NCBI GenBank assembly: GCA_023246095.1
Contig: JAHFJA010000003.1
Location: 10,782-74,781, forward strand
DNA: 64,000 nt
Direction: 5' to 3'
DNA from: a bacterium
Lineage (GTDB): Bacteria; Patescibacteriota; Patescibacteriia; JACQRZ01
A program made the translations under genes and the position numbers. Shown piece by piece: positions 6,887-56,364 of the stretch; the stretch's first letter is position 1, and each line of letters begins with the position of its first letter. The notes under the pieces are model-generated. The model searched no databases, had not been told where the DNA came from, and saw nothing but the letters and a program-made list of their open reading frames with translations.

Positions 6887-7007
6887 ACAGTAAATAATAT
6901 GAATCGGCTAGTACACGTAGTGTACCTTAGATTCTGTAAATATCAAGAGGGAGACAGCAAAAAAGCGGCAATCATGGTACCGCTTTTTTGTGGGGAAACG
7001 AGAGGGT

Positions 7008-7361
7008 TTATTGTGTGATTGGTTTTTGATCAACACTTCCTTTGAGTAGGGCGTTGATAATTGAGAGCACAAGACTAAATAACAGTGCCCACCAAAATCC
7101 GTTTACTGAAAAACCTGGAACGATTTGAGCGGCAAGTAAAATCATAAGTGCATTCACGACGAATGTAAATAGCCCGAGCGTGAGGATGTTGAGCGGGAGG
7201 GTGATTAGGAGGACAAGGGGACGGATCAGGGCGTTAATAAGCCCGAGAACTATCGCAAGTACCAACGCGGTAAGGAAATTATTCACATCGACGCCCGGTA
7301 AAATATAGGCGGCTACGAGGATGGCAAGCGCAGAAATAAGCCAGTTAAGGAGAATGGCCAT
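7008..7361 (-). CDS. DUF360/phage-holin-4-like small membrane protein (YvlD-type)
   Basis: 117 aa, 4 TM, internally repeated LPG..VNGFW / LINALIRP motifs. Confidence 0.5.
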   Translation of the reverse strand: MAILLNWLISALAILVAAYILPGVDVNNFLTALVLAIVLGLINALIRPLVLLITLPLNILTLGLFTFVVNALMILLAAQIVPGFSVNGFWWALLFSLVLSIINALLKGSVDQKPITQ

Positions 7362-7384
7362 AAAGAGGAAAGATATTAAGAATA

Positions 7385-8275
7385 ATGATATTGTATTACA
7401 ATAAGTATACTCTTTATTCCCCTATGTCCCCAATGAAACGTCAACCCTACTCAGGACCGCATTATACCCCCATGATTCTCGCATTGGTTGCAATGGGGAT
7501 ACTGGTAGGCGCGTATTTCTTTTTTCAAAAAACTCCGGCTAAAGAAGACGTGTCGACCGCGAACTCCGAACAAGTGGCGCCATTAATCCCTGTTCCTACT
7601 ACCGCCGTAGTACCTGTTATCGAACCGCCAAAAGAAGAACCTATCGTAATTGAGAAAAAAACGACAGAAGAGAAGAATCCTGAGTTTGGCATCACAACCG
7701 CATATCCGGCTCTCAAAAAAGGGGACGTGAGTGTTGATGACATCAATGCGACGATACGAATTTTCGTTGATGGCACCATAAAACAATTTAAAGACGATTT
7801 TAATAATGCAAAAAAAGAAGGAAGTACGGGTAACCCTGATGAGACATGGAGTTTGACGATTGGTTATGATACTCCCTACCAATCTTCAGATTATATTTCA
7901 CTTGAGTTATCGGTCGATAGTTATGAAGGTGGTGCCCATCCAAATGGAACAGTAAAAACGTTTGTCGTTGATGTGAAGAATCAGAAAATACTTTCCCTTG
8001 ATGATATCCTTATCTCAAATACGTCGCTCAAAGATCTTTCCGCACTTGCGATTGCAGATTTAAAAAAGCGGAATGTATCAGATGATGATTGGATTACAAG
8101 CGGTGCATCTGGCAAAACAGAAAATTATCAGGCGTGGTACCTCTCTTCAAACGGTTTGACGATATTATTTTCATCATATCAAGTCGCGCCGTATGCAGCG
8201 GGGGTACAAGAAGTGACGATTTCCCCATTAAAGTTATCGGATTTAATTAAGCCAGAATATATCCTGACCAAGTAG
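7385..8275 (+). CDS. Membrane-anchored DUF3298/DUF4163 (RsiV-like) domain protein
   Basis: N-terminal TM helix; C-terminal SLELSVDSYEGGAHPNGTVKTFVVD motif typical of DUF3298; exact start uncertain (Met at 7385, 7424 or 7433). Confidence 0.5.
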   Translation: MILYYNKYTLYSPMSPMKRQPYSGPHYTPMILALVAMGILVGAYFFFQKTPAKEDVSTANSEQVAPLIPVPTTAVVPVIEPPKEEPIVIEKKTTEEKNPEFGITTAYPALKKGDVSVDDINATIRIFVDGTIKQFKDDFNNAKKEGSTGNPDETWSLTIGYDTPYQSSDYISLELSVDSYEGGAHPNGTVKTFVVDVKNQKILSLDDILISNTSLKDLSALAIADLKKRNVSDDDWITSGASGKTENYQAWYLSSNGLTILFSSYQVAPYAAGVQEVTISPLKLSDLIKPEYILTK

Positions 8276-8331
8276 AGAATGTATTTTATTTAAGCGTTGC
8301 AGTACACGTGGTAAATTTTTTAATAGTTCAA

Positions 8332-8340
8332 TGCTATAAT
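8332..8340 (+). promoter_or_regulatory. Extended -10 element TGCTATAAT upstream of ABC exporter copy 1
   Basis: TGnTATAAT 10 nt upstream of the ATG at 8350; same element and flanks duplicated at 10156. Confidence 0.45.
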
Positions 8341-8349
8341 GAGCATACT

Positions 8350-10128: not shown

Positions 10129-10155
10129 GTGAGTGTAGTTATCATTATAGTACGA

Positions 10156-10164
10156 TGCTATAAT
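10156..10164 (+). promoter_or_regulatory. Extended -10 element TGCTATAAT upstream of ABC exporter copy 2
   Basis: Duplicate of the 8332 element inside an approximately 60 nt nearly identical block. Confidence 0.45.
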
Positions 10165-10173
10165 GATCATACT

Positions 10174-11955
10174 ATGGCATCTTCTTCATCTGCTACAGAT
10201 TCAAAAATAGAATATCCAACACGTGCGCTTGTTCGAGATTTGTGGATTGCATTAAAAGGCAAACTCCTGTTATTTATTATTGGTTCATGTTTGCGATTGT
10301 GCGCAACCGTGTTGTGGTTATACCCCGCTTTTGCGTTTTCGCGTGTCGTTTCAGAATTAAGTCATGGCATTTCCTCATCTACGATATGGTGGGTTTGGTT
10401 TTTTTTACTATCATGGGTGGGTGTATTAACGGTGGCGAATACTCTCAACTTTATCGCAAACAATATTGTTTTTCGCATTACTAATGAGATTAAACTGAAG
10501 ACAGAAGTTTCAGCACTTGAACACTTACTTCATCTGGACTCAGCATGGCACGAAAAAGAAAATGCTGGAAATAAAATTAAAAAAATTGATCGAGGTTCGA
10601 ATTCGATGGGCGATATACTGGAGATTTGGTACAATCAAATACTACAAATTCTCGTAAGTTTTGTCGGTGCCTTGATCATTATTTCGGCGTTTGATTTTAC
10701 GGTGACAGGAATAATGCTTGGCTTTATAGCGATTTATTACTTTGTATCAATGAAACTTACGAAAGCAACCCGTGCTGCAGTGAAGGACGCAAATATTGCT
10801 GAGGAGGAGTTAGGCGGACTGGAGTACGAGGCGGTAGATAATGTACGCACCATAAAAGTGTTGGGTATGAATCGATCGATGATGCGTCTCGTTTTAAAAT
10901 CAGTTGATGTACTATACAAAAAAATAATGAGGCGCATGTTTTGCTTTACGCGTCGTACATATGTTCTCGATAGTATCTCTGTAATATTCCGTACTCTCAG
11001 CCTGGCATACATTATCATTGGTATTATTCATGGCACTAAGGACGTCGGATTCCTCGTTCTTTTTTTTGGATATTACGGTTCGATTGAATCAGCGGTTGTT
11101 CGTTTTGCTGAAATGACGCAGAATTACATGATTGGTAGACAAAGTATTACTCGCCTCAAAGAAATTACTAATACACCGATAAATATAGATGCAGAAATAG
11201 GTAAGAAGCAATTCCCTAAGCAATGGAAGCGTCTGGCGCTTTCTCATGTCACTTTTCGCTATCACGATAATATTGTGCTCAATGATATTTCTCTTGAGAT
11301 CAATCGTGGAGAAAAAATCGGCATTATAGGTCTTTCGGGTGCAGGAAAATCAACGCTTTTTAAGCTCCTTCTTAAGGAGTATGAAGATTTCGAAGGTGAC
11401 ATTTTTGTGGATAATATTTCGTTGAAGACGATACGTCGTAGTGATTATCTCCTTCACGTCGCAGCGGTAATGCAAGAGACAGAAGTATTTAACTTCACGT
11501 TGAAGGAAAATATTATGATTGCAAATCCTTCTGTTCGTCACGGTGATAAGGTATTTCTTGATCGTGCTATGAAGACGGCGCACGTAACTGATTTCATTAA
11601 AAAATTACCTGAAGGTGCAGATACTATGATTGGTGAAAAGGGAGTTAAACTTTCGGGCGGGGAAAAACAGCGTCTTGGTATTGCTCGTGCAATATTTAAA
11701 AGACCAGAGATACTGTTTTTGGACGAAGCAACGTCGCACCTTGATTTGGAGTCAGAAGAAAAGATCAGAGATTCATTGCATAAGTTTTTTAAAGATATCA
11801 CTGCGGTTGTAATAGCGCATAGGTTGACTACCATAAAAGAAATGGATCGAATCATTGTCCTTGAGGGTGGTCGTATCATAGAACAAGGAACATTTGATCA
11901 GCTTATGAAACAAGAAGGGCGATTTTACACTCTTTGGCAGAAACAGCAGTTGTAG
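10174..11955 (+). CDS. ABC transporter, fused permease/ATP-binding half-transporter, paralog 2 (tandem duplicate)
   Basis: Same motifs (GLSGAGKST, LSGGEKQRLGIARA, LDEATSHLD); N-terminal MASSSSATDSK and C-terminal ...QEGRFYTLWQKQQL identical to copy 1. Confidence 0.88.
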   Translation: MASSSSATDSKIEYPTRALVRDLWIALKGKLLLFIIGSCLRLCATVLWLYPAFAFSRVVSELSHGISSSTIWWVWFFLLSWVGVLTVANTLNFIANNIVFRITNEIKLKTEVSALEHLLHLDSAWHEKENAGNKIKKIDRGSNSMGDILEIWYNQILQILVSFVGALIIISAFDFTVTGIMLGFIAIYYFVSMKLTKATRAAVKDANIAEEELGGLEYEAVDNVRTIKVLGMNRSMMRLVLKSVDVLYKKIMRRMFCFTRRTYVLDSISVIFRTLSLAYIIIGIIHGTKDVGFLVLFFGYYGSIESAVVRFAEMTQNYMIGRQSITRLKEITNTPINIDAEIGKKQFPKQWKRLALSHVTFRYHDNIVLNDISLEINRGEKIGIIGLSGAGKSTLFKLLLKEYEDFEGDIFVDNISLKTIRRSDYLLHVAAVMQETEVFNFTLKENIMIANPSVRHGDKVFLDRAMKTAHVTDFIKKLPEGADTMIGEKGVKLSGGEKQRLGIARAIFKRPEILFLDEATSHLDLESEEKIRDSLHKFFKDITAVVIAHRLTTIKEMDRIIVLEGGRIIEQGTFDQLMKQEGRFYTLWQKQQL

Positions 11956-23613: not shown

Positions 23614-23650
23614 CAAAAAAGCCCTCACTTTCGGGAGGGCTCTATTGGAG
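23614..23650 (-). repeat. Copy A of the tRNA-Gly downstream terminator repeat (CAAAAAAGCCCTC..GAGGGCTCT.TTGGAG)
   Basis: 7 bp perfect hairpin plus A6 (a T-run on the minus strand); also present at 24840 (attached to tRNA-Gly) and 49798. Confidence 0.6.
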
Positions 23651-23788
23651 TTGATTGGTGGACGACATTGAAAGCAATTGGGCGCGAATAGGTATCCCTT
23701 GACTTTTGGTAAAAATAATATAGAGTGGGGACAAACGGCTAGCTCGTTGAGCTCGTTTACAAATTATTGTTATTGGAGGAAACGGATT

Positions 23789-24154
23789 ATGAATGCAGAC
23801 GTCAAAGAGCAGAGAGTGTTTGTATTAGATCAAAGTGAGCTATCAAATAATACATATGCCGTATGGAATGTGATAATTTCGTATACCGTGAGGCTTATGT
23901 CAGATGGTAGCTTAGTCCAGGTTATTTCTTTGGTTCAGAAAGGAATTTCCGGGCGTCTGGAAGGTGAAGATGTTTGGCGTATTGGTCAATCGACAAAAAA
24001 CTACGCAGACCTGCTTAATTTTGATAGAAATGACGCAGCGAAGTTATTTGAGATGTGGTACACATCTAGGGGGAGAAATAAAGCGGCAGTGGCCGAGTGG
24101 CTACACAGCAGGTTTAGTTCCACTAGAAGTATATTTAAAAAATTATTGTTTTAA
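23789..24154 (+). CDS. Hypothetical protein (121 aa)
   Basis: SD GGAGG before ATG 23789. Confidence 0.45.
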   Translation: MNADVKEQRVFVLDQSELSNNTYAVWNVIISYTVRLMSDGSLVQVISLVQKGISGRLEGEDVWRIGQSTKNYADLLNFDRNDAAKLFEMWYTSRGRNKAAVAEWLHSRFSSTRSIFKKLLF

Positions 24155-24165: not shown

Positions 24166-24591
24166 ATGAGTGAGGTTATTCAGTATTTTATTGGGGGGCA
24201 GTATTGTGCGGCACATGGTTCCATTGGTGATACTCTAAAGCAAAGTCGTGTTTTAGAGAATTGTATAGATCATTCAATTGAGATCATTCCACCAAACGAT
24301 ATTCAGTCTATAGACAAACTCAGAAAGTGTTTGAAAGACGTGGAAAAGGAATTTTTAGACCTAGACTGTGATAATGCCCCGGCAGACTACGATCATGCAA
24401 AAAGAAATGTTGCTCGACTAAAAATGGGTATTATTACGGAAATCCTTCTGACTGGAAAGGTAAATACAGCTAATTACAAAATACATGCGAGGGAAATAAA
24501 GTTACACCACAACTATACGGATTATCAATATGATTGTGCTTGCAATGAGATTGTAGGTTTATGGGAAGAAGGGGGTAAAGAGGATGAGTAA
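24166..24591 (+). CDS. Hypothetical protein (141 aa)
   Basis: SD AAGGAGG before ATG 24166. Confidence 0.45.
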   Translation: MSEVIQYFIGGQYCAAHGSIGDTLKQSRVLENCIDHSIEIIPPNDIQSIDKLRKCLKDVEKEFLDLDCDNAPADYDHAKRNVARLKMGIITEILLTGKVNTANYKIHAREIKLHHNYTDYQYDCACNEIVGLWEEGGKEDE

Positions 24592-24839
24592 GTTTGAATA
24601 TGGGGATCTTGATATATCTGTATTGGTTAATCTTTCTGAATGCCGAAGCCTTAGTAAATAGTAGACTTTGTATTATTTCTCTTAAACCTAGTGCTAAAGA
24701 TTACGATATAGAACTTGATGGGCCGGAAATGGACGGGTTACATATAGAGTAATTTAAATTGTATGTTTGGGTTTATTTGCGAGGTAGTTAATTACTGCCT
24801 CTTTTTTTATTTTTCCTAATTTCTCATCCCTCTATTATC

Positions 24840-24871
24840 AAAAAAGCCCTCCTTTTTGGGAGAGCTCTCTT
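24840..24871 (-). terminator. Terminator of tRNA-Gly (copy B of the repeat)
   Basis: GAGAGCTCTCCCaaaaaGGAGGGCTTTTTTG on the minus strand immediately 3' of the tRNA. Confidence 0.6.
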
Positions 24872-24946
24872 GGAGCGGGTAACGGGAATCGGACCCGTAT
24901 CTCGACCTTGGCAAGGTCATATAATAACCATTATACGATACCCGCG
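24872..24946 (-). tRNA. tRNA-Gly (anticodon GCC)
   Basis: Hand-folded: acceptor GCGGGTA/TACCCGC, anticodon loop TTGCCAA, T-arm with CGATTCC, CCA encoded. Confidence 0.8.
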
Positions 24947-44719: not shown

Positions 44720-44842
44720 ATGCGTTCAATGATATCAAAAATGCGTACAAAAATCAAGGTTTATATAAAAAAGAAGAACATTGACGTTGGTGTCGGATAG
44801 GATACACTACACGTAGTTCATTTTAATGGAGAGGAACAGGTC

Positions 44843-45328
44843 ATGAAAAAATTTGTTCAATGGTTCTTGCGAACTTGGATAGGAAGAAAAATAGCTGAAA
44901 AGATAAACAGAGGCGCCCTGAACGAACAGAGAAAGAATTGGATGTTTTTTTATAGCGCAATTCTAGGAAGGGAAATTGAAATATCGATAGAAGAAATTCC
45001 TTCGCGTCCTGAATGTCCTCATGAGATATGTACGCTTTTTATCGGGATGTCATCAATACCGAGTACGGAGATTTTAGAAAATATTATTGAGTGGTTGCAA
45101 CTCGATGAATTTAAAGGGTTAGACGTCAGTTCTATACAGAACGATTTGAATGGAGATAGGAGTATCTACGCTGTATGGGTATGTAACATAGAAGAACTTT
45201 CTATACAGGAGCGTTTGTTGTATGAGTTTATGATGGTAACAGAAACTGATTTTGCCTCACCCTGGTTTTTTGAATTTTGTACAAAACTATCTCAAACAAC
45301 CCACTCTTCCTCTATCGTGGAGAAATAA
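44843..45328 (+). CDS. Hypothetical protein (161 aa)
   Basis: ORF only. Confidence 0.35.
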   Translation: MKKFVQWFLRTWIGRKIAEKINRGALNEQRKNWMFFYSAILGREIEISIEEIPSRPECPHEICTLFIGMSSIPSTEILENIIEWLQLDEFKGLDVSSIQNDLNGDRSIYAVWVCNIEELSIQERLLYEFMMVTETDFASPWFFEFCTKLSQTTHSSSIVEK

Positions 45329-45455
45329 ATATATACTAACAATGTAGTAACGAGGGAATCAACCTCGTTATTTTAATTTGTTGACTCTTGACGGAAAGCG
45401 AAATGTAGCGTAGTATCCAGTGGTTGTTATTTTGGGCCAATGGAGGTACCACACA

Positions 45456-45992
45456 ATGCAGAAAATAATACTGTTGTTTGTTCTTTTATTAATTACCTTA
45501 TATCCTCGTCATGCGTTTGCGAGGGTCGTTTCAGTGCCGACATATCATGCTCAAGTAGTATTCACTCGATACGACCCATTCGATATCCGACAAGCACCGG
45601 GAAATGGAATTACGCGTTCAGGGTTGCGCGCAACGATTCCCGCTGTCAATTCCAATACTCCGATGTATGTGGCGGCTGCTCGCTCTACGAGTAAATATTT
45701 TGGCAAACTATATTATGCAAATTTGCGCCACGGGAAAGCACGTCTTACGTGTTTTTTATATGTCATAGACACAGGTAATTTGTCTCCGAACCAAATTGAT
45801 ATTGCGGTAAACGGTAAGCACATAAAGCGTGTTTCACCGTTTATGAGTTGGAAAGGGAATTTACGTTATTTTAAGCTCAAAGAAATAGCATCTTTTGTCC
45901 GACCGGGAAAAAAGTATAGAGAAGGATCGTTGCCTGATCCACGAAAGGTTGAAAAAAGAATTAAGAAGGGGGAATTTAATTATATGATTTAA
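45456..45992 (+). CDS. Secreted hypothetical protein
   Basis: Signal peptide MQKIILLFVLLLITLYPRHAFA. Confidence 0.4.
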   Translation: MQKIILLFVLLLITLYPRHAFARVVSVPTYHAQVVFTRYDPFDIRQAPGNGITRSGLRATIPAVNSNTPMYVAAARSTSKYFGKLYYANLRHGKARLTCFLYVIDTGNLSPNQIDIAVNGKHIKRVSPFMSWKGNLRYFKLKEIASFVRPGKKYREGSLPDPRKVEKRIKKGEFNYMI

Positions 45993-46002
45993 ACCAATTT
46001 CT

Positions 46003-46033
46003 ATAGCTCTGCTTCTTAATGAGGCAGAGCTAT
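46003..46033. terminator. Bidirectional terminator ATAGCTCTGCttcttaatgagGCAGAGCTAT
   Basis: 10 bp perfect stem. Confidence 0.7.
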
Positions 46034-46052
46034 TTAATATCAAGATTATAAA

Positions 46053-46994
46053 TTATTTAATGGGACACACAAATTTTCTGACGATGTACTTAAACGGCAA
46101 TAACATCAGCGCCCATGGGAATATTATTAAAACCGACATTGTTAGCACGTTCGGATCTGAGAAAAATGCATTAGCGAGATATATCGCTAATGTGAAATTA
46201 AGAAACGTCAGACATACGGCTATCGTTAGACGGTCAGAGCAATTTCTCCAAAAGGAAACGTGGTATCCCGCAATGAGCAAAAGAGCGACAAAAATAAACA
46301 GTACGACTATTTGAATCAGCATCGCAGGGCCAATACTTTGGAAAATAATCGATGACTGTTTTGCGACGGCGCCCGCAATAAGTAAGCCGAGTAACAGCAA
46401 CGATATTGGTTTGAATGTAAAAAAAGTAATCTTTAGCTGTCGATGCCAGAAGTGACGTATTATTTGAGCAATGGCAAAAGGAATGACGATGACGGTGAAT
46501 AATGAGGTGAACATAGTCATGGCACTGACAGTGACAGCGGTTCCGGCAAATACGTTAATGACAAGAGGTATAGTAAAAGGAGCAAGTAGTGATGTTGTGA
46601 TAGTGAGTACCAATGCGAGGCTCTGTTTACCCCCCACGACCTCTGCAAGAAGCGGTGATGTCATACCACTAGGCATTGCAGCAAGAAGCATTAGTGGTAT
46701 AGCAAGCGATGGTGAAATTTGGTTGGCGATGATAAAGGTGATTGCGGGTAAAATGAGCAACATGAATAGTGTGGAGAGTACTACCATTTTTATATCTTTT
46801 GCTTCTTTCATTACTTCTTTTAGGTCCAGTTTTAGGCTGGTAAGTAAGAAGATAATTTGCAGGAAAAGAGTAGTGTAAGGATTGAGAGCAACAAATGTAT
46901 CTGCAAAAAATAACCCTGCCATGAGAGCTGCAAGGACGATAAACAAGTATGACTCTAGTAATGTAAGAAAAAGACGGGTGACGCGGTTTATCAT
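46053..46994 (-). CDS. Bile acid:sodium symporter (BASS/SBF) family transporter
   Basis: About 9-10 TM; SBF-like motifs (LLAAMPSGMTSPLLAEVVGG). Confidence 0.6.
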   Translation of the reverse strand: MINRVTRLFLTLLESYLFIVLAALMAGLFFADTFVALNPYTTLFLQIIFLLTSLKLDLKEVMKEAKDIKMVVLSTLFMLLILPAITFIIANQISPSLAIPLMLLAAMPSGMTSPLLAEVVGGKQSLALVLTITTSLLAPFTIPLVINVFAGTAVTVSAMTMFTSLFTVIVIPFAIAQIIRHFWHRQLKITFFTFKPISLLLLGLLIAGAVAKQSSIIFQSIGPAMLIQIVVLFIFVALLLIAGYHVSFWRNCSDRLTIAVCLTFLNFTLAIYLANAFFSDPNVLTMSVLIIFPWALMLLPFKYIVRKFVCPIK

Positions 46995-47143
46995 ATTTCA
47001 GATCAATAAGATTTGTATGAGGACTATCGTACCATTTTCTTTGAACAAAAACACGTTTATGTCTATTTTCTCTAGTTGACATATTGTTGTATAGGGTATA
47101 TATATTTGGTGGGTATATGAAGTAATGAAGAAGGAGATCGATA

Positions 47144-47734
47144 ATGAGTATAGTAAAAAATATTTTTGATGGTATAGAGGTGGAAGTTACAAATCTTACT
47201 TCAGTTATTGGGGGAAAGTATAGTCAACTTAGTCGGTGGGTGACCTATGATTTGTATGACGACCAAGTGAATCTCAGATTTGATTTTCAATGGTACAAGA
47301 ATCATAACTATGAGGCGTGTTCTGACTATCTTTTGGTAAGGTTGATATGTTCATTGGCACACAAGGGAGATCATTGTTGCCGCAGAGAGTATTTGAGTAG
47401 GAAAATGATTGTTCAGAGAACATATGACAATATACTCGATATTATATTGTCGGAACAAAAGCTGGTTTACAGAGAGAAAAAGTATTATTCGTTTGATTTC
47501 AAATCAAGTAGGGAGGGTTTTTGGTTTTATTTTTCATTGGGTAGTACAGCAAAAGTTGGTATCCCTGGCAGTTTATTTTCCGATGAATTCAAACTTAATA
47601 GGGATCAGTTCCGAGAGAAACCATCGCAGGAATTACGAGAAAAACTTATAGAGCTGTTATCTGAAGAAGTAGGGGAAAAAGTATTGGGTATTTATTACAA
47701 AGGAGAGAATGTAAAAAACAAGTTCAATCAATGA
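47144..47734 (+). CDS. Hypothetical protein (196 aa)
   Basis: SD GAAGGAGA before ATG. Confidence 0.4.
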   Translation: MSIVKNIFDGIEVEVTNLTSVIGGKYSQLSRWVTYDLYDDQVNLRFDFQWYKNHNYEACSDYLLVRLICSLAHKGDHCCRREYLSRKMIVQRTYDNILDIILSEQKLVYREKKYYSFDFKSSREGFWFYFSLGSTAKVGIPGSLFSDEFKLNRDQFREKPSQELREKLIELLSEEVGEKVLGIYYKGENVKNKFNQ

Positions 47735-47857
47735 TCGTATTAAATTTCGCCCCTGGATGTTTTTCATCCCGGGGTATTGATTTTTTATAGTCCTTCATAT
47801 TAATGGTTTGTGGCTGAGGGTAAACAGAAACGCCTCCGTAAGGGAGATGTCTTTGTA

Positions 47858-47883
47858 GGGTCACGTGGCGGAGGAAGTAGGAG
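47858..47883 (+). repeat. Short repeat GGGTCACGTGGCGGAGGAAGTAGGAG (copy of the degenerate tRNA-His 3'-end-like segment also at 48287-48312)
   Basis: About 24 of 27 identity with 48287-48313. Confidence 0.5.
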
Positions 47884-47929
47884 TTTTGAACGATAGCAAG
47901 GAAGTAATTAACCATCTATAATAGTTACT

Positions 47930-48145
47930 ATGAAATTTCCGCTTCACGAAACCTGGAAACGATCTCTTGTTAAGGCAATTACCTACAGGGTGTTCATTAT
48001 TATTCTGGATTTTTTAACTATATGGTTGATTACCAAAAGAGCTGAGTTCGCAATTGGATTTGTCGTTATAAGTAACATTTATACTACCATCGCATATTTT
48101 TTTCATGAAAGGTTCTGGAACCGAGTTCCTTGGGGGAAAAAATAA
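47930..48145 (+). CDS. DUF2061-family small membrane protein
   Basis: 71 aa; SLVKAITYRV...YFFHERFWNRVPWG pattern. Confidence 0.55.
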   Translation: MKFPLHETWKRSLVKAITYRVFIIILDFLTIWLITKRAEFAIGFVVISNIYTTIAYFFHERFWNRVPWGKK

Positions 48146-48223
48146 TCTGTTTATGCGTACCCAAACCTAAATACACCGTTTCTCTTTTTATCAGTATTCT
48201 CATTTGGTTCAAAGTTTATGGAT

Positions 48224-48315
48224 GTTAGAACTAAAATTAATATCTAGCCAAAACAAAAATTGAACTGTTTCCAATTCAATTCCTGTTGGGGTCACGTGGT
48301 GAAGGAAGTGGGGAC
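48224..48315 (+). repeat. Direct repeat copy R2: GTTAGAAC...AAAATTGAACTGTTTCCAATTCAATTC..GTTGGGGTCACG plus a decayed tRNA-His 3'-end-like tail
   Basis: Aligns over about 78 bp with 49862-49935 (the flank plus 3' end of tRNA-His). Confidence 0.6.
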
Positions 48316-48336
48316 TTTAGTTATTTCTAATTGCTG

Positions 48337-49134
48337 TTACAACGTTTCCAAAAAAGCATCTTTGATCGGTGGTTTGTAAGTACTTACTTTAGAAATATTC
48401 CATACCACTTCAAATTGTGCGCGCATCAGTTCTGCAAAGTCTTTGCTTTGGACAATGAATCCAAATGTTTCTTTTCTCGATGAGATGAACGCGACCTTAT
48501 TTTCATAGATTGTGTGTCCCATGTTCCAGGTCATGTTCAGCGGTGCAATACGAAGGTCTCGCAGGTGTTTCTTCCCAATCCCGAGAAAAGGAAATTGGTC
48601 TATGTTCACTGTTTTGTCTTTTGGCCAGATGACGCGCAAATGATTTTTGTTTTTGATCCGTTTGCGATTAAAGTTTTCTAGGTAGTGCGTTCCTAACACT
48701 GCGATCATTTCTTCCATCGGCCAAATCGAGAGGATCTGTGTATGATCGTACCAATACAGGTCATTCAAAATTTTGCGCACTTGTTCGGTCCCTCTGAAAT
48801 GTCTAATCTTTGGTTCATTATTTTTTTCCTGCTGGATGGGATGGTATCTGTCTATGTTTTTACTCTGTATTTCAAGGCTCTCAATCTTATTTTTCATGAG
48901 TTGTTTTAATTGTCCTATGTCATTGATTTGAAATAGTTTTTTGCTGTCTTCATCCTGTTCGATGATGAGGCCATTTTCAAGAAGAATATTCAGATGGTCA
49001 TAAATCGAAGAGCGTGGCATGCTGATTGTTTCGGCAAGTTGGCGCGCTGAACTGCTTCCTCGCTCAAGAAGGCGAGTATATACGAGGGTCGTATTTTCAG
49101 AAAAGCCTAATTCTTTGAGGATTGCTTCTATCAT
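48337..49134 (-). CDS. TrmB-family transcriptional regulator
   Basis: N-terminal wHTH (TRLLERGSSSARQLAETISMPRSSIYDHLNILLENGLI) plus TrmB-like C-terminal domain. Confidence 0.55.
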   Translation of the reverse strand: MIEAILKELGFSENTTLVYTRLLERGSSSARQLAETISMPRSSIYDHLNILLENGLIIEQDEDSKKLFQINDIGQLKQLMKNKIESLEIQSKNIDRYHPIQQEKNNEPKIRHFRGTEQVRKILNDLYWYDHTQILSIWPMEEMIAVLGTHYLENFNRKRIKNKNHLRVIWPKDKTVNIDQFPFLGIGKKHLRDLRIAPLNMTWNMGHTIYENKVAFISSRKETFGFIVQSKDFAELMRAQFEVVWNISKVSTYKPPIKDAFLETL

Positions 49135-49232
49135 AGATATTTGTCGATATTCGACGACATATTGACATAATAGGGTTTTCGTACCATGATGTCAAACGGT
49201 AATATGAATGATTAAGTAAAGGAGGAATAGAA

Positions 49233-49748
49233 ATGGTTATTGTGAATGTATTGATTAATAACCCTGCATTTTGGCTGTTAATTGGTGTATTGGTACATTT
49301 TCACGTGCGCAAAATTCCTCGTGTGAAAAATCTTAGGAAATATATTAGAACGGCAGACTTTGTATATTGGCCAGGTATCGAGAGGCACAGAATGGAATAC
49401 TTTCAACTACTTGTAAGTGCCATATGCGCTGTTATGTTATCTGCTTCTCTGGGGGCGATTATGGATGATACTCGTTTTATGTATCTTGAAAATTGGAATG
49501 ATATACTTCATGTGGCAAGGGCTTTGTATTTACTGTGCATATTTCCGGGACTTACAATTCCTATATTTGCATCCCTTGCTTCGATAGTGCAGACTATTGA
49601 GTATATTTTTAAAATATACCGCCATATCAAAATGGAGGATTATGATCACGAAAGTTATATTTTTGAAGGTGGGCTGATTGTACGATTCTTGGAAATGATC
49701 CCGATACTATCATTTATTGTCATATTGGTGAGTGGAAGAAAATTATAA
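49233..49748 (+). CDS. Hypothetical membrane protein (171 aa)
   Basis: SD AAGGAGG; 4-5 TM. Confidence 0.4.
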   Translation: MVIVNVLINNPAFWLLIGVLVHFHVRKIPRVKNLRKYIRTADFVYWPGIERHRMEYFQLLVSAICAVMLSASLGAIMDDTRFMYLENWNDILHVARALYLLCIFPGLTIPIFASLASIVQTIEYIFKIYRHIKMEDYDHESYIFEGGLIVRFLEMIPILSFIVILVSGRKL

Positions 49749-49797
49749 CTATAAACATTGGACTAAGATAACATCAAGGTCCTTTTATTTTTGTGTA

Positions 49798-49835
49798 TCA
49801 AAAAATCCCTCTTTCGAGAGACTCTTTGGAGCGAG
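49798..49835 (-). repeat. Copy C (decayed) of the tRNA-Gly downstream terminator repeat
   Basis: CAAAAAATCCCTCTTTCGAGAGACTCTTTGGAGCGAG versus 24840 CAAAAAAGCCCTCCTTTTTGGGAGAGCTCTCTTGGAGCGGG. Confidence 0.5.
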
Positions 49836-49861
49836 ATATGAATATATAAAAATTTTATCTA

Positions 49862-49924
49862 GTTAGAACCGCTTTTGATATTTAACCAAAATAAAAATCG
49901 AACTGTTTCCAGTTCAATTCGCGT
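49862..49924 (+). repeat. Direct repeat copy R3 (flank immediately 3' of tRNA-His)
   Basis: Matches 48224-48290. Confidence 0.6.
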
Positions 49925-49999
49925 TGGGGTGACCGACGAGGATCGAACTCGCGATGGGAGGACCACAACCTCCTGTGTTACCACTACACCACGGCCACC
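49925..49999 (-). tRNA. tRNA-His (anticodon GTG) with encoded G-1
   Basis: Hand-folded: G-1 plus acceptor GTGGCCG, anticodon arm GGAGG-TTGTGGT-CCTCC, T-loop TTCGATC, discriminator C plus CCA. Confidence 0.8.
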
Positions 50000-50483: not shown

Positions 50484-51101
50484 ATGGATTACACCACGTT
50501 GGCTGCTAGTCAAGTCGTAAAAGAGACTATTGGGTCATTGGGGAAAAGACATATTGAGGTACTAAGTGTAGAAAATGGGGCCCAGGCGCTAGACAAAATA
50601 AAGGAGCTCATTCCGACCGGCGCTTCAGTAATGAATGGTTCTTCACGAACCCTTGAACAAATTGGTTTCGTTGATTACCTCAAAGCAGGCACTCATGGCT
50701 GGAATAATCTTCATGAAGGAATTTTGGCCGAAAAAGATTCTGCTAAACAAGCACTACTTCGCAAGCAAGCAGTACTTTCTGATTATTACTTGGGTAGCGT
50801 TCATGGTCTTGCCCAAACAGGAGAGTTTGTTATCGCTTCAAATACTGGTAGCCAGCTACCTCACATTGTTTTTACTTCACCAAATCTTATCTTTGTCGTA
50901 AGTACTAAAAAAATCGTACCCACCCTCGCGGATGCAATGGCACGCCTACAAGAACATGTAATTCCTCTAGAAGAAAAACATATGCAAGAGCTATATGGTG
51001 TCCATACTGCACCAAATAAAGTTCTTATTTTTCAAGGTGAGAATCCAATGCTGGAAAGAAAAGTACGCGTAATTCTTGTAAACGAAGATCTTGGGTTTTA
51101 A
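50484..51101 (+). CDS. LUD-domain (LutC/YkgG-like, DUF162) protein
   Basis: 205 aa; ...YYLGSVHGLAQTGEFVIASNTGS... pattern. Confidence 0.5.
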   Translation: MDYTTLAASQVVKETIGSLGKRHIEVLSVENGAQALDKIKELIPTGASVMNGSSRTLEQIGFVDYLKAGTHGWNNLHEGILAEKDSAKQALLRKQAVLSDYYLGSVHGLAQTGEFVIASNTGSQLPHIVFTSPNLIFVVSTKKIVPTLADAMARLQEHVIPLEEKHMQELYGVHTAPNKVLIFQGENPMLERKVRVILVNEDLGF

Positions 51102-51102
51102 T

Positions 51103-52827
51103 ATGCAACAAAAGAATCAGCCGAACTTATTTGGACTATTAAAACCATATTGGAAGCTGGTCGCTTCGTTGGTTGTTTTGGCGTTGCTCAGTAATGGTTT
51201 GACGTTATGGCTGCCTCGATTACTATCTCATGGTATTGATGGTTTTTTGATGGGCACATCGCTCCATCCTATATTGTGGAAATTTTCTATTGCTTCGGTT
51301 TTGATATTTGTCCTTACTTATCTGCAAAGTATTGTCCAGACATATGCGTCAGAGCGAGTGGCGCGGGACCTGCGCGCTGATCTTTCCAGAAAAATATCGA
51401 CCCAGAGCTTTGCCCAAGTGCAAGCAGTAACGCCGTCAAGATTACTGACCAATCTCACGTCTGACATTGATTCGATTAAAAGTTTTGTTTCCCAAGCGAT
51501 CGTGAATATTGTGTCATCCGCCTTTATTATATTAGGGGGAAGTGTGCTGCTTCTTTCTATTGATTGGAAACTTGGTTTGGCTGTATTAACGATTTTGCCG
51601 ATTATTGCTGTTACGTTCTTTTTGATATTGGGCAAAGTAAGGAAGTTGTTTCTCGAAACGCGAGAGATAATTGACTGGTTAAACAAAGTTATTAACGAAA
51701 GCATCCTCGGCGCGGCGTTGATTCGCGTGTTGCATTCTCAACGATGGGAACACCAAAAGTTTATTGATGCCAACGGCAAGGCTCGAGATGTTGGAGTGAA
51801 GATTTTGAAATTGTTTTCGGCAATGATTCCCATCATTACGTTTGCTTCAAATCTTGCTATTGTCATCATCCTTGTGTTGGGAGGAAAATTTATCATTGAG
51901 GGAAGCATGAGCTTGGGGGATTTTGCTTCATTCAACAGTTATCTGGCGATCCTGATATTCCCCATCATGATTATCGGTTTCATGAGTAATATTATTGCAC
52001 AGGCCCAGGCGTCCTATGGCAGAATTGTCGACGTATTATCGTCACCGGAAACAAAAGACGAGGGTACTACTATAACACCACTCGACGGTAGTATTCAAAT
52101 AGAAAAGGTCACATTGATATACGGGCAAAGGGCAGTCTTAAAGGATGTTTCCTTCTCGATTGAACCCCACAGCAAAGTAGCCATCATTGGTCCGACCGCC
52201 GCCGGTAAAACGCAGTTGCTCAATCTCCTTATTGGACTGATCCAACCGACAAAAGGAGAAGTAAAATATGACCACCGCAATCTGGGTGAGTATCAGCGGG
52301 AAAATCTTTATAAGCAGGTTGGTATCGTTTTCCAGGACAGCAATATTTTTAATATTAGCGTGCGGGAAAATATTGCATTTAACACTGATGTTACCAAAGA
52401 AGATATGGAAAAGGCTATTGAAACTGCAGAGTTGTCTGAGTTCATTAGTGGCTTGCCTTTGGGGCTTGAGACGGTTGCCTCTGAACGGGGTATGAGCTTA
52501 TCGGGCGGGCAAAAACAACGTATTATGCTTGCTCGCGCGCTTGCCATCAATCCAAAAATTTTATTACTTGATGACTTCACTGCGCGTGTCGATGCGAATA
52601 CTGAGAAAAAAATTCTTGAAAATGTTGCAAAAAATTATCCTGAATTAACATTGGTATCGGTAACACAAAAGATCGCTTCCGTTGAGCATTATGACCAGAT
52701 TATTGTATTGATGGAGGGTGAAGTGATCGCGACGGGAAAACATGAAGACTTGATTCACACATCGCCGGAATATGTACAGATATATAATTCACAGCAAAGT
52801 ACCAGTACGTATGAACTACAATCTTAG
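51103..52827 (+). CDS. ABC transporter, fused permease/ATP-binding (exporter) subunit A
   Basis: 6 TM plus Walker A GPTAAGKTQ, signature LSGGQKQRIMLARA, Walker B LLLDD. Confidence 0.85.
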   Translation: MQQKNQPNLFGLLKPYWKLVASLVVLALLSNGLTLWLPRLLSHGIDGFLMGTSLHPILWKFSIASVLIFVLTYLQSIVQTYASERVARDLRADLSRKISTQSFAQVQAVTPSRLLTNLTSDIDSIKSFVSQAIVNIVSSAFIILGGSVLLLSIDWKLGLAVLTILPIIAVTFFLILGKVRKLFLETREIIDWLNKVINESILGAALIRVLHSQRWEHQKFIDANGKARDVGVKILKLFSAMIPIITFASNLAIVIILVLGGKFIIEGSMSLGDFASFNSYLAILIFPIMIIGFMSNIIAQAQASYGRIVDVLSSPETKDEGTTITPLDGSIQIEKVTLIYGQRAVLKDVSFSIEPHSKVAIIGPTAAGKTQLLNLLIGLIQPTKGEVKYDHRNLGEYQRENLYKQVGIVFQDSNIFNISVRENIAFNTDVTKEDMEKAIETAELSEFISGLPLGLETVASERGMSLSGGQKQRIMLARALAINPKILLLDDFTARVDANTEKKILENVAKNYPELTLVSVTQKIASVEHYDQIIVLMEGEVIATGKHEDLIHTSPEYVQIYNSQQSTSTYELQS

Positions 52828-54568
52828 TACAATAGATCCGGGTAAAAAAACATCCCTTTTGCAGGCGATCAAAACACTTTGGCCTTTGATTGTCCAAGAA
52901 AAGACGATAATGGTTTTCGCCTTGGTTGCTGTAGTCATCAACTCCCTTTTGAACCTCATCGCTCCTCGACTGATCGCCCATGCGGTCGATACCTATATTA
53001 TTGCACGCGATTACCATGGAGTTCTGATGTATGCGGGAATCATTTTGGCAATGTATGTGTGTGGTTTGTTAACCAGCTACATGCAAATTCGCCTTATGGG
53101 GGGTGTGGGACAGCGGGTACTGTATCGTTTGCGCAATCAAGTATTTAATAAACTTCAGGCGCTTCCTATTGCATTTTTTAATCAAAACAAAGCAGGTGAT
53201 TTGATTTCTCGCATCAATAATGACACTGATAAGATCAATCAGTTTTTTTCCCAGGCTTTAGTCCAGTTTATCGGAAATATTTTTCTCATGACCGGCGCGG
53301 CGATATTTTTACTTAGTCTCAATATTCGCTTGGGCGCTGCTACATTGGCACCTGCCGCGGGGCTGCTTATTATTACCAGTCTCCTCTCAGCGTGGGTAAA
53401 GAAGAAAAATCTGGTGAGTTCCAGAACGTTGGGGGGAATGAGCGCTGAGATCCAGGAAAGCCTTAATAATTTTAAAGTGATTATCGCCTTTAACCGAAGA
53501 GACTTTTTTAAAAAGCGATTTCAAGAAGTGAATGATGAAAATTATACTGCGTCGGTGGGGGCAGGAATTGCTAATAACACATTTACACCGATGTACGGTC
53601 TTGCTTCAAACATTGGACAAATGATTGTGTTAGCATACGGTATCTCGTTGATTTTGTCTGGTCATTTTACGGTGGGTTTGCTGATTAGTTTTCTTTCATA
53701 TGCCAATAGTTTCTACAGCCCCTTGCGCCAACTTGCGGCGCTTTGGGCAAGCCTCCAGGCGGCGATGGCAAGTTGGGATCGAGTGCACGACATATTGATG
53801 TTGGAAAGTGATTTGCCGGTACTTACCGAGTCCGCTGAAGCAAATTATCAGACAGCACTAGAACTTAGGAATGTACATTTCACGTACCCTGACGGCAAAG
53901 AGGTTCTGCATAATATCAATATACAATTGGAAAAAGGAAAAACATATGCACTGGTGGGACCTACTGGAGGAGGGAAGACAACAACTGCGTCGTTGATGGC
54001 GCGTTTGTATGATCCGACTATAGGAACAATATTTTTAAATGGTAAAGACATTCGCAGTTACTCTCCCCAAGAACGCACACAAAAAATTGGTTTCATTTTG
54101 CAGGAGCCTGTGCTGTTTACGGGAAGCGTACGGGAAAACATTTTGTATGGAAATGAGGAGTACCAATCTCATAGCAATGAACAACTAGAAGCGCTTATTC
54201 ATGACGCCGGTTTGGAAAAATTATTGAAACGATTTGATCAAGGACTGGAAACGAAACTAACTGCCAGTGGAGATGCGGTAAGTCTTGGTCAAAAACAGCT
54301 CATCGCGTTTATTCGTGCTGTGCTTCGTAACCCAGACGTATTGATTCTGGACGAAGCGACGGCGAATATTGACACGGTAACCGAAGAATTGCTCGAAGAG
54401 ATTTTGCGCAATCTTCCCTCAAGCACAACAAAGGTGATTATCGCCCATCGCCTTAACACGATTGAAAACGCTGATGAAATATTCTTTGTAAATGCCGGTG
54501 AAGTGATCAAAGCAGGTTCGATGGAAAACGCATTGGAGATGCTGTTGCACCAGGATATGAGGAGTTAG
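52814..54568 (+). CDS. ABC transporter, fused permease/ATP-binding (exporter) subunit B
   Basis: 6 TM plus Walker A GPTGGGKTT, signature-like VSLGQKQLIAFIRA, Walker B LILDEATANID; overlaps subunit A by 14 nt. Confidence 0.85.
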   Translation, partial: NYNLSTIDPGKKTSLLQAIKTLWPLIVQEKTIMVFALVAVVINSLLNLIAPRLIAHAVDTYIIARDYHGVLMYAGIILAMYVCGLLTSYMQIRLMGGVGQRVLYRLRNQVFNKLQALPIAFFNQNKAGDLISRINNDTDKINQFFSQALVQFIGNIFLMTGAAIFLLSLNIRLGAATLAPAAGLLIITSLLSAWVKKKNLVSSRTLGGMSAEIQESLNNFKVIIAFNRRDFFKKRFQEVNDENYTASVGAGIANNTFTPMYGLASNIGQMIVLAYGISLILSGHFTVGLLISFLSYANSFYSPLRQLAALWASLQAAMASWDRVHDILMLESDLPVLTESAEANYQTALELRNVHFTYPDGKEVLHNINIQLEKGKTYALVGPTGGGKTTTASLMARLYDPTIGTIFLNGKDIRSYSPQERTQKIGFILQEPVLFTGSVRENILYGNEEYQSHSNEQLEALIHDAGLEKLLKRFDQGLETKLTASGDAVSLGQKQLIAFIRAVLRNPDVLILDEATANIDTVTEELLEEILRNLPSSTTKVIIAHRLNTIENADEIFFVNAGEVIKAGSMENALEMLLHQDMRS

Positions 54569-54591
54569 GGTAATTTGGTATAATCCGGAGT

Positions 54592-55221
54592 ATGAAAGCC
54601 TTCTTTCCACAAGACAGATCTTCACTCTTCTCTCTTGTCCCGCTTGTTATCGTAAATATCATCCCTCTTGTTGGGGTGTTGTTTCTTGATTGGAGCTTGT
54701 TCCAAGTACTTTTTTTGTATTGGGTCGAAAGCGGTGTTATTGGTGTTTATAATATATTCAAACTCATTATAGTAGCTCGTTTATCAAGCATTATAGCGGT
54801 GCCTTTTTTTATCATCCACTATAGTCTGTTCATGCTTATCCATTTGCTATTTATTATTGTTCTTTTTGCTCCTGACCTACGTTCTGATTCCCTCTTTCCT
54901 TCTGGCGCTGTTATTGTCACACTGCTTGGTAGGAATGTAGTACCTGTTTTACTGTTGTTTATAAGTCATGGCGTGTCATTTTTTTGGAATTTCATTAAAG
55001 GTCGAGAGTATGAAAATACCGACGTTCGCAAACAAATGAATGCACCCTATGAAAGAGTTTTAATAATGCACTTTACGATTATATTTGGAAGCTGGCTGGT
55101 ATTTTCCTTTGGTAAGCCGGTATTAGGAGTAGTATTTTTGATTGTTTTCAAAACCTTTATCGATGTGTTTTCTCATCTGCGGGTACACGGATTTATAAAA
55201 AGCCAATATAGCAAATATTAG
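54592..55221 (+). CDS. Hypothetical polytopic membrane protein
   Basis: 6 TM, 209 aa. Confidence 0.4.
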   Translation: MKAFFPQDRSSLFSLVPLVIVNIIPLVGVLFLDWSLFQVLFLYWVESGVIGVYNIFKLIIVARLSSIIAVPFFIIHYSLFMLIHLLFIIVLFAPDLRSDSLFPSGAVIVTLLGRNVVPVLLLFISHGVSFFWNFIKGREYENTDVRKQMNAPYERVLIMHFTIIFGSWLVFSFGKPVLGVVFLIVFKTFIDVFSHLRVHGFIKSQYSKY

Positions 55222-55262: not shown

Positions 55263-55337
55263 TGGTGCGCCCTGCAGGAATCGAACCTACATAACAGGCT
55301 TAGAAGTCCTGTGTTCTATCCATTGAACTAAGGGCGC
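55263..55337 (-). tRNA. tRNA-Arg (anticodon TCT)
   Basis: Hand-folded: acceptor GCGCCCT/AGGGCGC, anticodon loop CTTCTAA, T-loop TTCGATT, CCA encoded. Confidence 0.75.
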
Positions 55338-55380
55338 ATGTCATGGATACAGTACGAAATTCGAGAATGATTGTCAATCA

Positions 55381-56364
55381 CTACTTCTTTCTTTTCTTCC
55401 CATGAAACGCTTTGTGAACGTCGCGCAATTGCTGGTTGGTAATATGAGTGTAGATTTGCGTGGTGGTGATACTAGAGTGCCCCAAGAGTGCTTGTACTGA
55501 TCGGATGTCAGCTCCGTTGATCAAAAGATCAGTCGCAAAGGTGTGGCGCATGACATGGGGGGTAATATGTTTTGTAATCCCGGCGGCGTGGGAATATTTT
55601 TGTACGAGACGCTGCATGCTGCGAGGAGTGAGGTGAAGATTGTCATCATCTTCATCGAGAGCTTTGCCGGTAAACGCGCGATCATGGCGGATGAAAAGTG
55701 GGTTGAATACGTCAGTGCGCAATGCAAGATAGTCTCGGATACGATCTTTTGCATTTTTTGAAAGAAATACGATGCGATATTTGTCGCCTTTTCCTTTTAC
55801 GGTGAATTCATCCTTGGCTAAATTGATGCTACCACGACGCAAGGCGGCTAACTCGGACACGCGAAGCCCCGATGAAAAAAATAACTCTAAGATTGCCGCA
55901 TCACGCTGTTTGGTAATCTCTGGTTCATGCGTACGAGCGGGTGCTTGAAGAAACCGTTCAAGGTCGTCTCCTTCCATGAAGTCAACCGTTCGCTGAGGCA
56001 TTTTTGCGAGTTCTATTTTTTCTGGAGCCAGGGTGCGAATGTCGCGCTTTGCGAGATACTTTAAAAATGACCGCACTGCGATGAGGTGATAATTTTGCGT
56101 ATTCTTTTTCAGTGGTGTATCCCCGTTGAGTCGATTGAGCCAGAGGCGAAATGCGCGAACAGTATCTAAACTAATTTGTGCCGGTGCGGTAACTTTATTT
56201 TCTCGCGCCCACTTTTCAAAACGGTTGAGATAAAACGCGTAATTCTCAATCGTGTTTGGTGAGCGGTTTTTTTCAATCTCAATATGTTCGAGATAATCGC
56301 GGATCAATTTTTTGAGAAGTGATGGGGGAGGCATAGTCCTTTTATTGTACGACACTATTGACAA
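55381..56364 (-). CDS. Tyrosine site-specific recombinase, XerC/XerD family
   Basis: N-terminal SAM-like core-binding domain; C-terminal catalytic region ...HVMRHTFATDLLINGADIRSVQALLGHSSITTTQIYTHI (R..H..R..Y). Confidence 0.85.
   Translation of the reverse strand: MSIVSYNKRTMPPPSLLKKLIRDYLEHIEIEKNRSPNTIENYAFYLNRFEKWARENKVTAPAQISLDTVRAFRLWLNRLNGDTPLKKNTQNYHLIAVRSFLKYLAKRDIRTLAPEKIELAKMPQRTVDFMEGDDLERFLQAPARTHEPEITKQRDAAILELFFSSGLRVSELAALRRGSINLAKDEFTVKGKGDKYRIVFLSKNAKDRIRDYLALRTDVFNPLFIRHDRAFTGKALDEDDDNLHLTPRSMQRLVQKYSHAAGITKHITPHVMRHTFATDLLINGADIRSVQALLGHSSITTTQIYTHITNQQLRDVHKAFHGKKRKK

Follow-up and report, generated by a model that had tools for sequence, protein, structure and literature searches.

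Genomic islands inserted behind tRNA genes are recognised by displaced fragments of the tRNA gene (tDNA), which mark the island ends (PMC4383910), and the asymmetric 3' end of a tDNA is one of the known sublocations for integration (10.1101/2020.11.02.365908). In Dehalococcoides, islands stand in tandem at ssrA; directly upstream of each direct repeat lies a conserved motif that is not part of ssrA, and many of the islands carry no integration module (PMC3146451). Elements with att sites at their ends but no integrase are referred to as cis-mobilizable elements (CIMEs), and their stacking as accretion (PMC5704250). The locus described here lies downstream of the tRNA-His(GTG) gene in a stretch of 64,000 nucleotides (hereafter the window) from contig JAHFJA010000003.1 of a Patescibacteria (Candidate Phyla Radiation, CPR) genome. 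The closest relatives of the LUD protein encoded in the window are found in metagenome-assembled genomes (MAGs) of Nomurabacteria or Paceibacteria type. With a probability of roughly 0.7, site-specific recombination placed two small related integrase-less islets—called E1 and E2—successively at the discriminator/CCA, the extreme 3' end of this tRNA gene. The finding is best read as a tandem of mini-islets, a variation on the known theme of tDNA islands and CIMEs that is undescribed in this lineage.

The intact tRNA gene is followed by three junctions, which are numbered from the far end toward the gene and consist of a short tRNA-like core with an arm on its 5' side (P) and an arm on its 3' side (P'):

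49925–49999, minus strand: intact tRNA-His(GTG), gene at 49925–49998 with G-1 at 49999 and encoded CCA (ARAGORN; Rfam tRNA, 54.3 bits)
49862–49933, minus strand: R3, attL-like junction; core GTCACCCCA (49925–49933), then the presumably islet-borne arm P'a (49862–49924) (repeat search, terminator scan and DNA fold)
48224–48315, minus strand: R2, hybrid E2/E1 junction, in which both repeats overlap; arm Pa (48296–48315), core GTGACCCCA (48287–48295), arm P'b (48224–48286)
47822–47883, minus strand: R1, attR-like junction; arm Pb (47865–47883), core GTGACCC (47858–47864), then a displaced older tRNA-His flank (24-nt repeat, terminator scan)

Two direct repeats define these junctions in a repeat search of the window. 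The longer one spans 72 nt at 81% identity (48224–48295 versus 49862–49933) and is composed of the last 9 nt of tRNA-His and 63 nt of terminator-bearing flank. The shorter one spans 24 nt at 88% identity (47858–47881 versus 48289–48312). Both had been noticed by the first-pass annotation of this DNA, as a recurrence of the tRNA-His 3' flank at 48224 and a third copy of a tail at 47858, and both are borne out. Degenerate patterns written for the two repeats match these sites only in the 64-kb window and yield 0 matches in 100 shuffles; chance does not account for either repeat. Contig L002 of an independent Logan assembly, made from the same sample, reproduces 47100–49954 at 100% identity, and hence the arrangement is not assembler-specific.

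The homology between the junctions is staggered, as judged by the alignments: R3 is composed of tRNA, core and P'a; R2 of Pa, core and P'b; and R1 of Pb, core and the native terminator. In tRNA orientation, on the minus strand, R3 reads ...CGTCG-GTCACCCCA-ACGCGAATTGAACTGGAAACAGTTCGATTTTTATTTTGG..., R2 reads ...CACTTCCTTCACCAC-GTGACCCCA-ACAGGAATTGAATTGGAAACAGTTCAATTTTTGTTTTGG... and R1 reads ...TACTTCCTCCGCCAC-GTGACCC-TACAAAGACATCTCCCTTACGGAGGCGTTTCTGTTT. R3 and R2 have in common the core and 63 nt on its 3' side (the 72-nt repeat), and R2 and R1 the core and approximately 17–20 nt on its 5' side (the 24-nt repeat). Only the core, corresponding to the acceptor-stem 3' strand, discriminator and CCA, is common to all three. 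The core copies in R2 and R1 are in direct orientation and 7–9 nt long, and the repeat runs on into the flank. The tRNA-His gene is the insertion target and forms the attB side of the attL-like junction. An intrinsic terminator hairpin lies within P'a (49920–49895, minus strand; terminator scan) and is predicted to end the tRNA-His transcript at present. Folding retains this hairpin in both the R3 and the R2 copy of the flank, the latter copy being located directly 3' of the stop codon of the TrmB-like gene of E2. The older flank at R1, called B', carries a terminator-like hairpin (47847–47833) with a T-run and differs from the R2/R3 terminator.

Arm P is a conserved non-tRNA sequence of approximately 20 nt, YCYACTTCCTYCRCCAC, on the 5' side of the core. 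The tails containing it had been taken for decayed tRNA 3' ends, a description that fails beyond the core of 7–9 nt: the tRNA-derived part is GTSACCC(CA) only, and the tail GGGGTCACGTGGTGAAGGAAGTGGGGA features no resemblance to tRNA past its first 8–9 nt. The 20 nt 5' of the core are identical at 14–16 of 20 positions among four motif copies from two genomes, as opposed to 1–4 of 20 when compared with the corresponding positions of tRNA-His, where a gapped alignment likewise stays at shuffle level. ARAGORN detects no tRNA-like feature at the tails, nor does Rfam even at E<=10. As judged by these comparisons, the tail is a conserved non-tRNA arm and not a product of decay. Apart from the tRNA, Rfam searches yielded no match at either the gathering or the E<=10 threshold, and a riboswitch or small-RNA reading of the motif upstream of the DUF2061 gene of E1 was ruled out on this ground. 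Fold analysis detected no dyad symmetry or attC-like hairpin in the P-core segment; folding at the junctions is confined to the terminator hairpins, with z-scores of -0.4 to -2.4, and P-core stays unfolded. The motif contains a CACGTG palindrome. As a search pattern, it was written TCCTYCRCCACGTGACC.

The core carries a further indication of its origin. It reads GTGAC in four out of four motif copies, although tRNA-His reads GTCAC in the window and CTCAC in L099, a Patescibacteria contig from Hainich groundwater (sample behind ERZ1292628) that carries the other two copies. Since GTGAC occurs whatever the host tRNA, the P-core segment is no copy of the resident tRNA but travels with the inserted DNA. 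A possible crossover is thereby confined to ACC(CCA).

Relatives of the locus share a conserved backbone, which is present in six lineages and runs from S15 via a Xer-type recombinase, tRNA-Arg, zero to four genes and an EamA-like gene to tRNA-His. RuvB follows again 5–8 kb past tRNA-His—in L097 together with the C39 peptidase. The DNA in between, from tRNA-His to RuvB or the C39 peptidase, differs in every lineage (tblastn synteny). In L097, L103 and L107, tRNA-His runs directly into CCA-CAA-(A/G)AACA...GGTGTTTTTGTTTT, a flank of the type found after the R1 core and after the L099 motif, and the P motif is absent from these three loci. By their flanks, these loci resemble empty sites, albeit at the distance of a genus or family.

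L099 features tRNA-His, then a terminator-bearing flank and then a 140-aa glyoxalase/VOC gene. Directly after this gene, the motif recurs as TTCCACTTCCTCCACCAC-GTGACCCCA-CGAAGACATCTTCTCAAAAAGAAGGTGTTTTTGTTTT. The match to R2 extends over 25 nt at 96% identity; the one to R1, which includes the flank, covers 34 nt (L099 1824–1857) at 91%. The gene that follows encodes a Fic protein and is closed by a second, weaker copy with three mismatches. L099 and the window are 70% identical in EamA and 73% in the tRNA-His gene, and the P-core copies are the sole alignable non-coding, non-tRNA segments between the two loci. P is common to R1, the L099 sites and the R2/R3 side, the P' flank type is not. Neither an invariant locus nor a repeat at other places was encountered: the relatives differ, and the motif was found only downstream of tRNA-His.

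From this anatomy, a sequence of events can be proposed in which a site P-core-P' would be present on the circular form of each islet. P would be the conserved arm of approximately 20 nt, the core GTGACCC(CA) would mimic the last tRNA bases, and P' would be the terminator-bearing arm. E1, with the DUF2061 gene, would have entered the tRNA-His end first; E2, with a TrmB-like regulator and an ORFan membrane protein, would then have entered the regenerated tRNA end. The result would be the three junctions observed: tRNA-core-P'a at R3, Pa-core-P'b at R2 and Pb-core followed by the old flank B' at R1. In each event, the element would replace the gene end together with its terminator, and the displaced end would mark the far boundary. 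The P' arms would restore the last tRNA bases and provide terminators for the tRNA (R3) and the TrmB gene (R2). The recombinase would act in trans and be supplied by either an autonomous relative of the islets or the host Xer. Observed are the anatomy and variability of the locus, the recurrence of arm P in two genomes, the empty-type sites of relatives and islets devoid of a recombinase gene; mechanism, order of insertion, mobility and the trans-acting enzyme are what we infer from them. The scheme predicts the empty-site junction tRNA-His ...GGTCACCC + TACAAAGACATCTCCC, the E1-only junction tRNA ...GGTCACCCCAACAGGAATTGAATTGG, and the circle junctions ...CTTCACCACGTSACCCCAACGCGAATTGAACTGG for E2 and ...CTCCGCCACGTGACCCCAACAGGAATTG for E1.

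Several results weigh against successive site-specific insertion. No circular junction was found, and no autonomous parent element with P-core-P' was found either; the P and P' patterns have 0 matches in viral contigs. The ORFs of 47858–49924 include no recombinase in or next to any islet, as judged by Pfam, NCBIfam and PHROG. Only four sites with the motif are known, from two genomes, and a 36-nt nhmmer profile built from the four sites detected no further copy in 1.6 Mb of fetched Patescibacteria loci. Between the window and L099, P alone is conserved and the P' arms are not. The core in common with the tRNA is very short, at 3–9 nt. The protein database holds no close relative: the EamA-like neighbour of the tRNA has three homologues only (70%, 65% and 50% identity), the best match thus being at 70%. 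Empty sites at strain level were not found.

Some further searches yielded matches that had to be discarded. The predicted empty site, written as GGTCACCCN{1,8}AAGACATCTCCC, gave six matches in metagenomes, all of them chance hits in GC-rich contigs devoid of tRNA, the pattern being too short for the size of the collection. A 24-mer of the tRNA-His 3' end matched only unrelated GC-rich phage tRNA clusters in the viral scan. No viral relatives of the 171-aa, TrmB and 196-aa proteins of this region were detected. The Logan contigs L001 and L002 (SRR14366756) both end inside tRNA-His, at window positions 49950–49954. These ends were rejected as a sign of polymorphism because a tRNA sequence common to co-occurring species suffices to break the de Bruijn graph.

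The same repeats could arise if circular or transformed DNA with approximately 40–70 nt of tRNA-His terminator flank were integrated by RecA in the manner of Campbell, whereby the homology is duplicated without a site-specific recombinase. The composition of the repeats (63 of 72 nt are flank, not tRNA) and the lack of a recombinase are in line with such an event, and other Patescibacteria cases, described below, likewise repeat mainly terminator flank at 86–97% identity. Homologous integration leaves unexplained, however, that the homology ends on its 5' side within the last 4–9 nt of the tRNA in every case, and that the non-homologous arm P is kept at 14–16 of 20 positions across unrelated cargo in two genomes. 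Moreover, R1 and the L099 sites possess P without the P' flank type of R2/R3, and RecA-mediated integration is hence considered unlikely. Still less credence is given to a local duplication with no mobile DNA involved, in which slippage or unequal exchange doubled the terminator region of tRNA-His in situ, the genes between the copies being later, unrelated arrivals. A tandem duplication could in principle yield direct repeats of the flank, and 81% identity suggests some age; yet unrelated cargo separates the copies, neither interval is a duplicate of the other, relatives are devoid of the copies, and P-core keeps 96% identity in L099 despite a tRNA-His gene of only 73% identity. The first-pass annotation had regarded the locus as accessory DNA and had offered serial insertion or excision at tRNA-His alongside duplication of the downstream region. 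Serial insertion of accessory DNA gains from the staggered homology, the L099 motif and the flanks of the relatives, whereas duplication alone accounts neither for the unrelated cargo nor for an arm that recurs across genomes.

That the 24-nt motif is a cis-acting signal other than a recombination site—a protein-binding or RNA 3'-end element before terminators, linked to the boundaries by coincidence—is improbable to a slightly greater degree than duplication. Its constant position, flanked by a gene end and by a terminator hairpin of the tRNA strand, and its CACGTG palindrome would fit a signal of this kind. Many other terminators, however, do without the motif, which was found only downstream of tRNA-His and at four sites in 1.6 Mb; its 3' end copies terminal tRNA bases, no Rfam family or significant fold of its own could be assigned to it, and the gene upstream of R1 is on the other strand. 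It is very improbable that R1 and R2 are ends of decayed tRNA-His pseudogenes left by a tandem duplication of the tRNA gene: the core GTGACCCCA does resemble a tRNA 3' end, but neither ARAGORN nor Rfam at E<=10 gives a tRNA signal, and the 20 nt 5' of the core match the tRNA at shuffle level and each other across genomes. Successive site-specific insertion is the reading retained for what follows.

The cargo of the two islets and the remainder of the variable region comprise the following features:

49233–49748, plus strand: predicted membrane protein of 171 aa, islet E2; an ORF divergent from the regulator
48337–49134, minus strand: TrmB-family winged-helix regulator of 265 aa, islet E2 (Pfam PF01978, E=4.9e-13)
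47930–48145, plus strand: DUF2061 mini membrane protein of 71 aa, islet E1 (Pfam PF09834, E=6.8e-11)
44720–47857, no strand given: rest of the variable region up to C39-peptidase/RuvB, with a 196-aa ORF, an SBF transporter and ORFs of 190 and 161 aa (tblastn synteny)

This gene content agrees with the first reading of the ORFs, and Pfam supports the assignment of the TrmB-family regulator and DUF2061. Measured from site to site, E1 has a length of 431 bp and E2 of 1638 bp, and the two intervals are not duplicates of each other. No transfer genes are present among the ORFs of 47858–49924. Sigma-70-like promoters in both directions are located at 49162–49195. The 171-aa protein is an ORFan: it has no Pfam, NCBIfam or PHROG match, and among 1.84 billion representatives the sole match is to itself. 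The TrmB-like protein has 118 homologues, the best non-self match being at 77%, and belongs to a widespread Patescibacteria family of approximately 267 aa. In relatives, its homologues occupy conserved, unrelated, non-tRNA neighbourhoods. An intrinsic tie between this regulator family and the site was rejected, as no TrmB homologue adjoins tRNA-His or carries the motif. A TrmB paralogue or orthologue with 77% identity is present in the same sample (SRR14366756) on L083, where its surroundings differ. The G+C content of 47144–49924 is 36.6%, compared with 41.6% for the window, and falls into the lowest 0.3% of 2.8-kb windows. Low G+C, ORFan cargo and TrmB relatives at other places are signs of foreign origin. 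The remaining region, 44720–47857, shows no synteny with relatives by tblastn and no boundary was recognised in it; it may consist of older insertions.

A comparable arrangement is found behind other tRNA genes. The survey covered 91 tRNAs in the fetched Patescibacteria loci, which stem in part from 80 loci matched by the neighbouring LUD protein, and scored repeats of the tRNA 3' end plus flank as strong at E<1e-4. Strong repeats occur six times downstream of a tRNA and zero times upstream. Four of the six bracket recombinase-less cargo of 1.15–1.7 kb: those at tRNA-His, at a tRNA-Gly of the window and at a tRNA-Asp and a tRNA-Ser of other genomes.

24871–24945, minus strand, window: tRNA-Gly(GCC); its last 5 nt (CTCCA) and terminator flank (24839–24875) recur at 23614–23650 with 86% identity, 1225 bp downstream
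6980–8760, contig L054 (Minisyncoccia MAG): tRNA-Asp; 3' end and terminator flank repeated at 97% identity, 1.7 kb downstream
9399–10640, contig L075 (Patescibacteria FW602_bin.41): tRNA-Ser; 97%-identical repeats of 3' end and flank, 1.15 kb

The tRNA-Gly repeats bracket two ORFs without a Pfam match on the opposite strand (23678–24154 and 24166–24591), and the distal copy is preceded by GTCGTCCACCAATCAA. The tRNA-Asp segment encodes an uncharacterised 189-aa ORF and a class-I methyltransferase and is devoid of a recombinase. The tRNA-Ser segment features an ArsR regulator and a LUD-domain gene, a homologue of the LUD gene of the window (50484–51101). No synteny of LUD with tRNA-His was found in the 80 Patescibacteria loci; by its position in the tRNA-Ser segment, LUD appears to be mobile cargo in this phylum, and this would be the reason why it is non-syntenic in the 80 genomes. 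The upstream arms at the other tRNAs do not contain the P motif of tRNA-His. An arm common to the tRNA-His P and the tRNA-Gly repeat was considered, with TCCACCA 10 nt from the CCA end and 14 of 21 positions identical (p~0.01–0.02). This similarity is suggestive only and is not relied on here; TCCACCA was not seen at the tRNA-Asp site and has a different offset at tRNA-Ser. Perfect copies of 16–17 nt of the 3' end are located downstream of tRNA-Met (L014 5680–5900) and tRNA-Phe (L062 12061–12260), at distances of 138 and 111 nt, with no gene enclosed. Earlier insertions or excisions may have left these copies behind.

Among the described systems, the locus is closest to CIMEs and to the tandem islands at tRNA and tmRNA genes (the Islander principle), to which the Dehalococcoides ssrA islands belong. 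The locus and these tandem islands feature a target regenerated at one end and a displaced direct 3' fragment at the other, serial accretion with the newest element next to the gene, and an element-derived motif upstream of the direct repeats. Of the hallmarks used by Islander, an intact regenerated tRNA, a displaced direct 3' fragment and, at genus or family distance, absence from relatives are found here; an integrase inside the element is not. In contrast to these islands, the islets are only 0.43 and 1.64 kb long, contain one or two genes and reside in a Patescibacteria host; none of the seven repeat-bounded insertions seen here has an integrase (four carry cargo of at least one gene); and the tRNA-derived core is limited to 7–9 nt, the repeat being mostly terminator flank. 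CIMEs and the accretion known from the Streptococcus ICESt1/ICESt3 family resemble the islets in their attL/attR-like bounds, the lack of integration or transfer genes and the tandem order at the 3' end of the target. However, CIMEs are understood as decayed integrative and conjugative elements (ICEs) or integrative and mobilizable elements (IMEs) mobilised by a known cognate ICE, whereas no parent or cognate integrase was found here. The tiny size of the islets and the one arm conserved across genera are suggestive of purpose-built cassettes rather than of remnants left by deletion.

Integron cassettes are likewise short, mostly of one gene, recombinase-less, provided with a conserved site-like end and stacked with the newest nearest to the fixed site. 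Unlike integrons, the locus has no adjacent intI (the nearest recombinase scores 131 bits against TIGR02249, the cut-off being 265, and has its best matches to XerC/XerD/XerA), no attC-like hairpin, and a tRNA 3' end instead of attI as the anchor. The cassettes, moreover, occur here in either orientation and with their own promoters. Phages and islands specific for tRNA 3' ends, for example phage mv4 at tRNA-Ser, also cross over at the very 3' end and restore the gene end (10.1101/2023.11.06.565760; 10.1101/2020.11.02.365908) but encode an integrase themselves and reach tens of kb in length. Integrative mobile elements exploiting Xer (IMEX) rely on the host Xer at dif, whereas the site here is the tRNA-His 3' end.

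CPR genomes are tiny, and to our knowledge little has been described on the gain of accessory genes in Patescibacteria. The present loci suggest that recombinase-less units of one or two genes are repeatedly placed exactly at tRNA 3' ends together with their own terminator, and for tRNA-His, the units also bring a boundary motif conserved across genera. Such units would escape island finders that depend on an integrase, for example Islander. If a recombinase acting in trans is responsible, they would represent a compact, targetable route of gene capture in a major uncultured lineage and would offer a simple sequence signature for accessory genes in CPR MAGs; if the islets are decayed remnants only, the locus is an ordinary tRNA hot spot. 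A more general, rather doubtful proposal is that Patescibacteria capture cassettes at tRNA 3' ends, with tiny recombinase-less cassettes and short conserved sites being inserted and stacked by a chromosomal recombinase in trans. The sites would be P-core plus terminator for tRNA-His, with analogous ones for tRNA-Gly, tRNA-Asp and tRNA-Ser, and one candidate enzyme would be the single conserved Xer-type protein just upstream of tRNA-Arg, EamA and tRNA-His. If true, this would amount to an integron-like platform for gene acquisition using tRNA ends in place of attI/attC.

55381–56334, minus strand: Xer-type tyrosine recombinase; Pfam and NCBIfam matches to XerC/XerD/XerA below their cut-offs, 7975 homologues

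This gene is located 5.4 kb upstream of tRNA-His, with tRNA-Arg and five genes in between, and is syntenic in all relatives. A tblastn search with the Xer protein detected no other tyrosine recombinase in the window. Its assignment as the enzyme acting on the islets in trans is speculation only. The order Xer-type gene, tRNA-Arg(TCT), EamA and tRNA-His is conserved in this Patescibacteria family (window 55263–56334; L097, L102, L103 and L107), and the window and L097 have 88% identity in the recombinase, compared with only 65% in EamA.

The interval between tRNA-Arg and tRNA-His is itself variable. A block consisting of DUF6498, two ABC transporter genes and LUD lies between tRNA-Arg and EamA in the window (50484–55221) and is absent from relatives: in L103 and L107, tRNA-Arg is directly followed by EamA, and in L097 only MscS lies between. 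The block is probably another insertion behind a tRNA; the tRNA-repeat scan detected no repeat of the tRNA-Arg flank. An HNH nuclease gene is located between EamA and tRNA-His in L099 (730–1221) and L102 (approximately 8185–8650) and is absent from the window; in L102, it is unannotated, the motif CHNCHFLIHH being visible. At a distance from the locus, the window contains direct repeats with a period of approximately 1.83 kb, namely 8323–8421/10147–10245 (83%) and 9716–10015/11543–11842 (76%), which point to two tandem paralogous genes with a common promoter-like leader (GCTATAATGA...).

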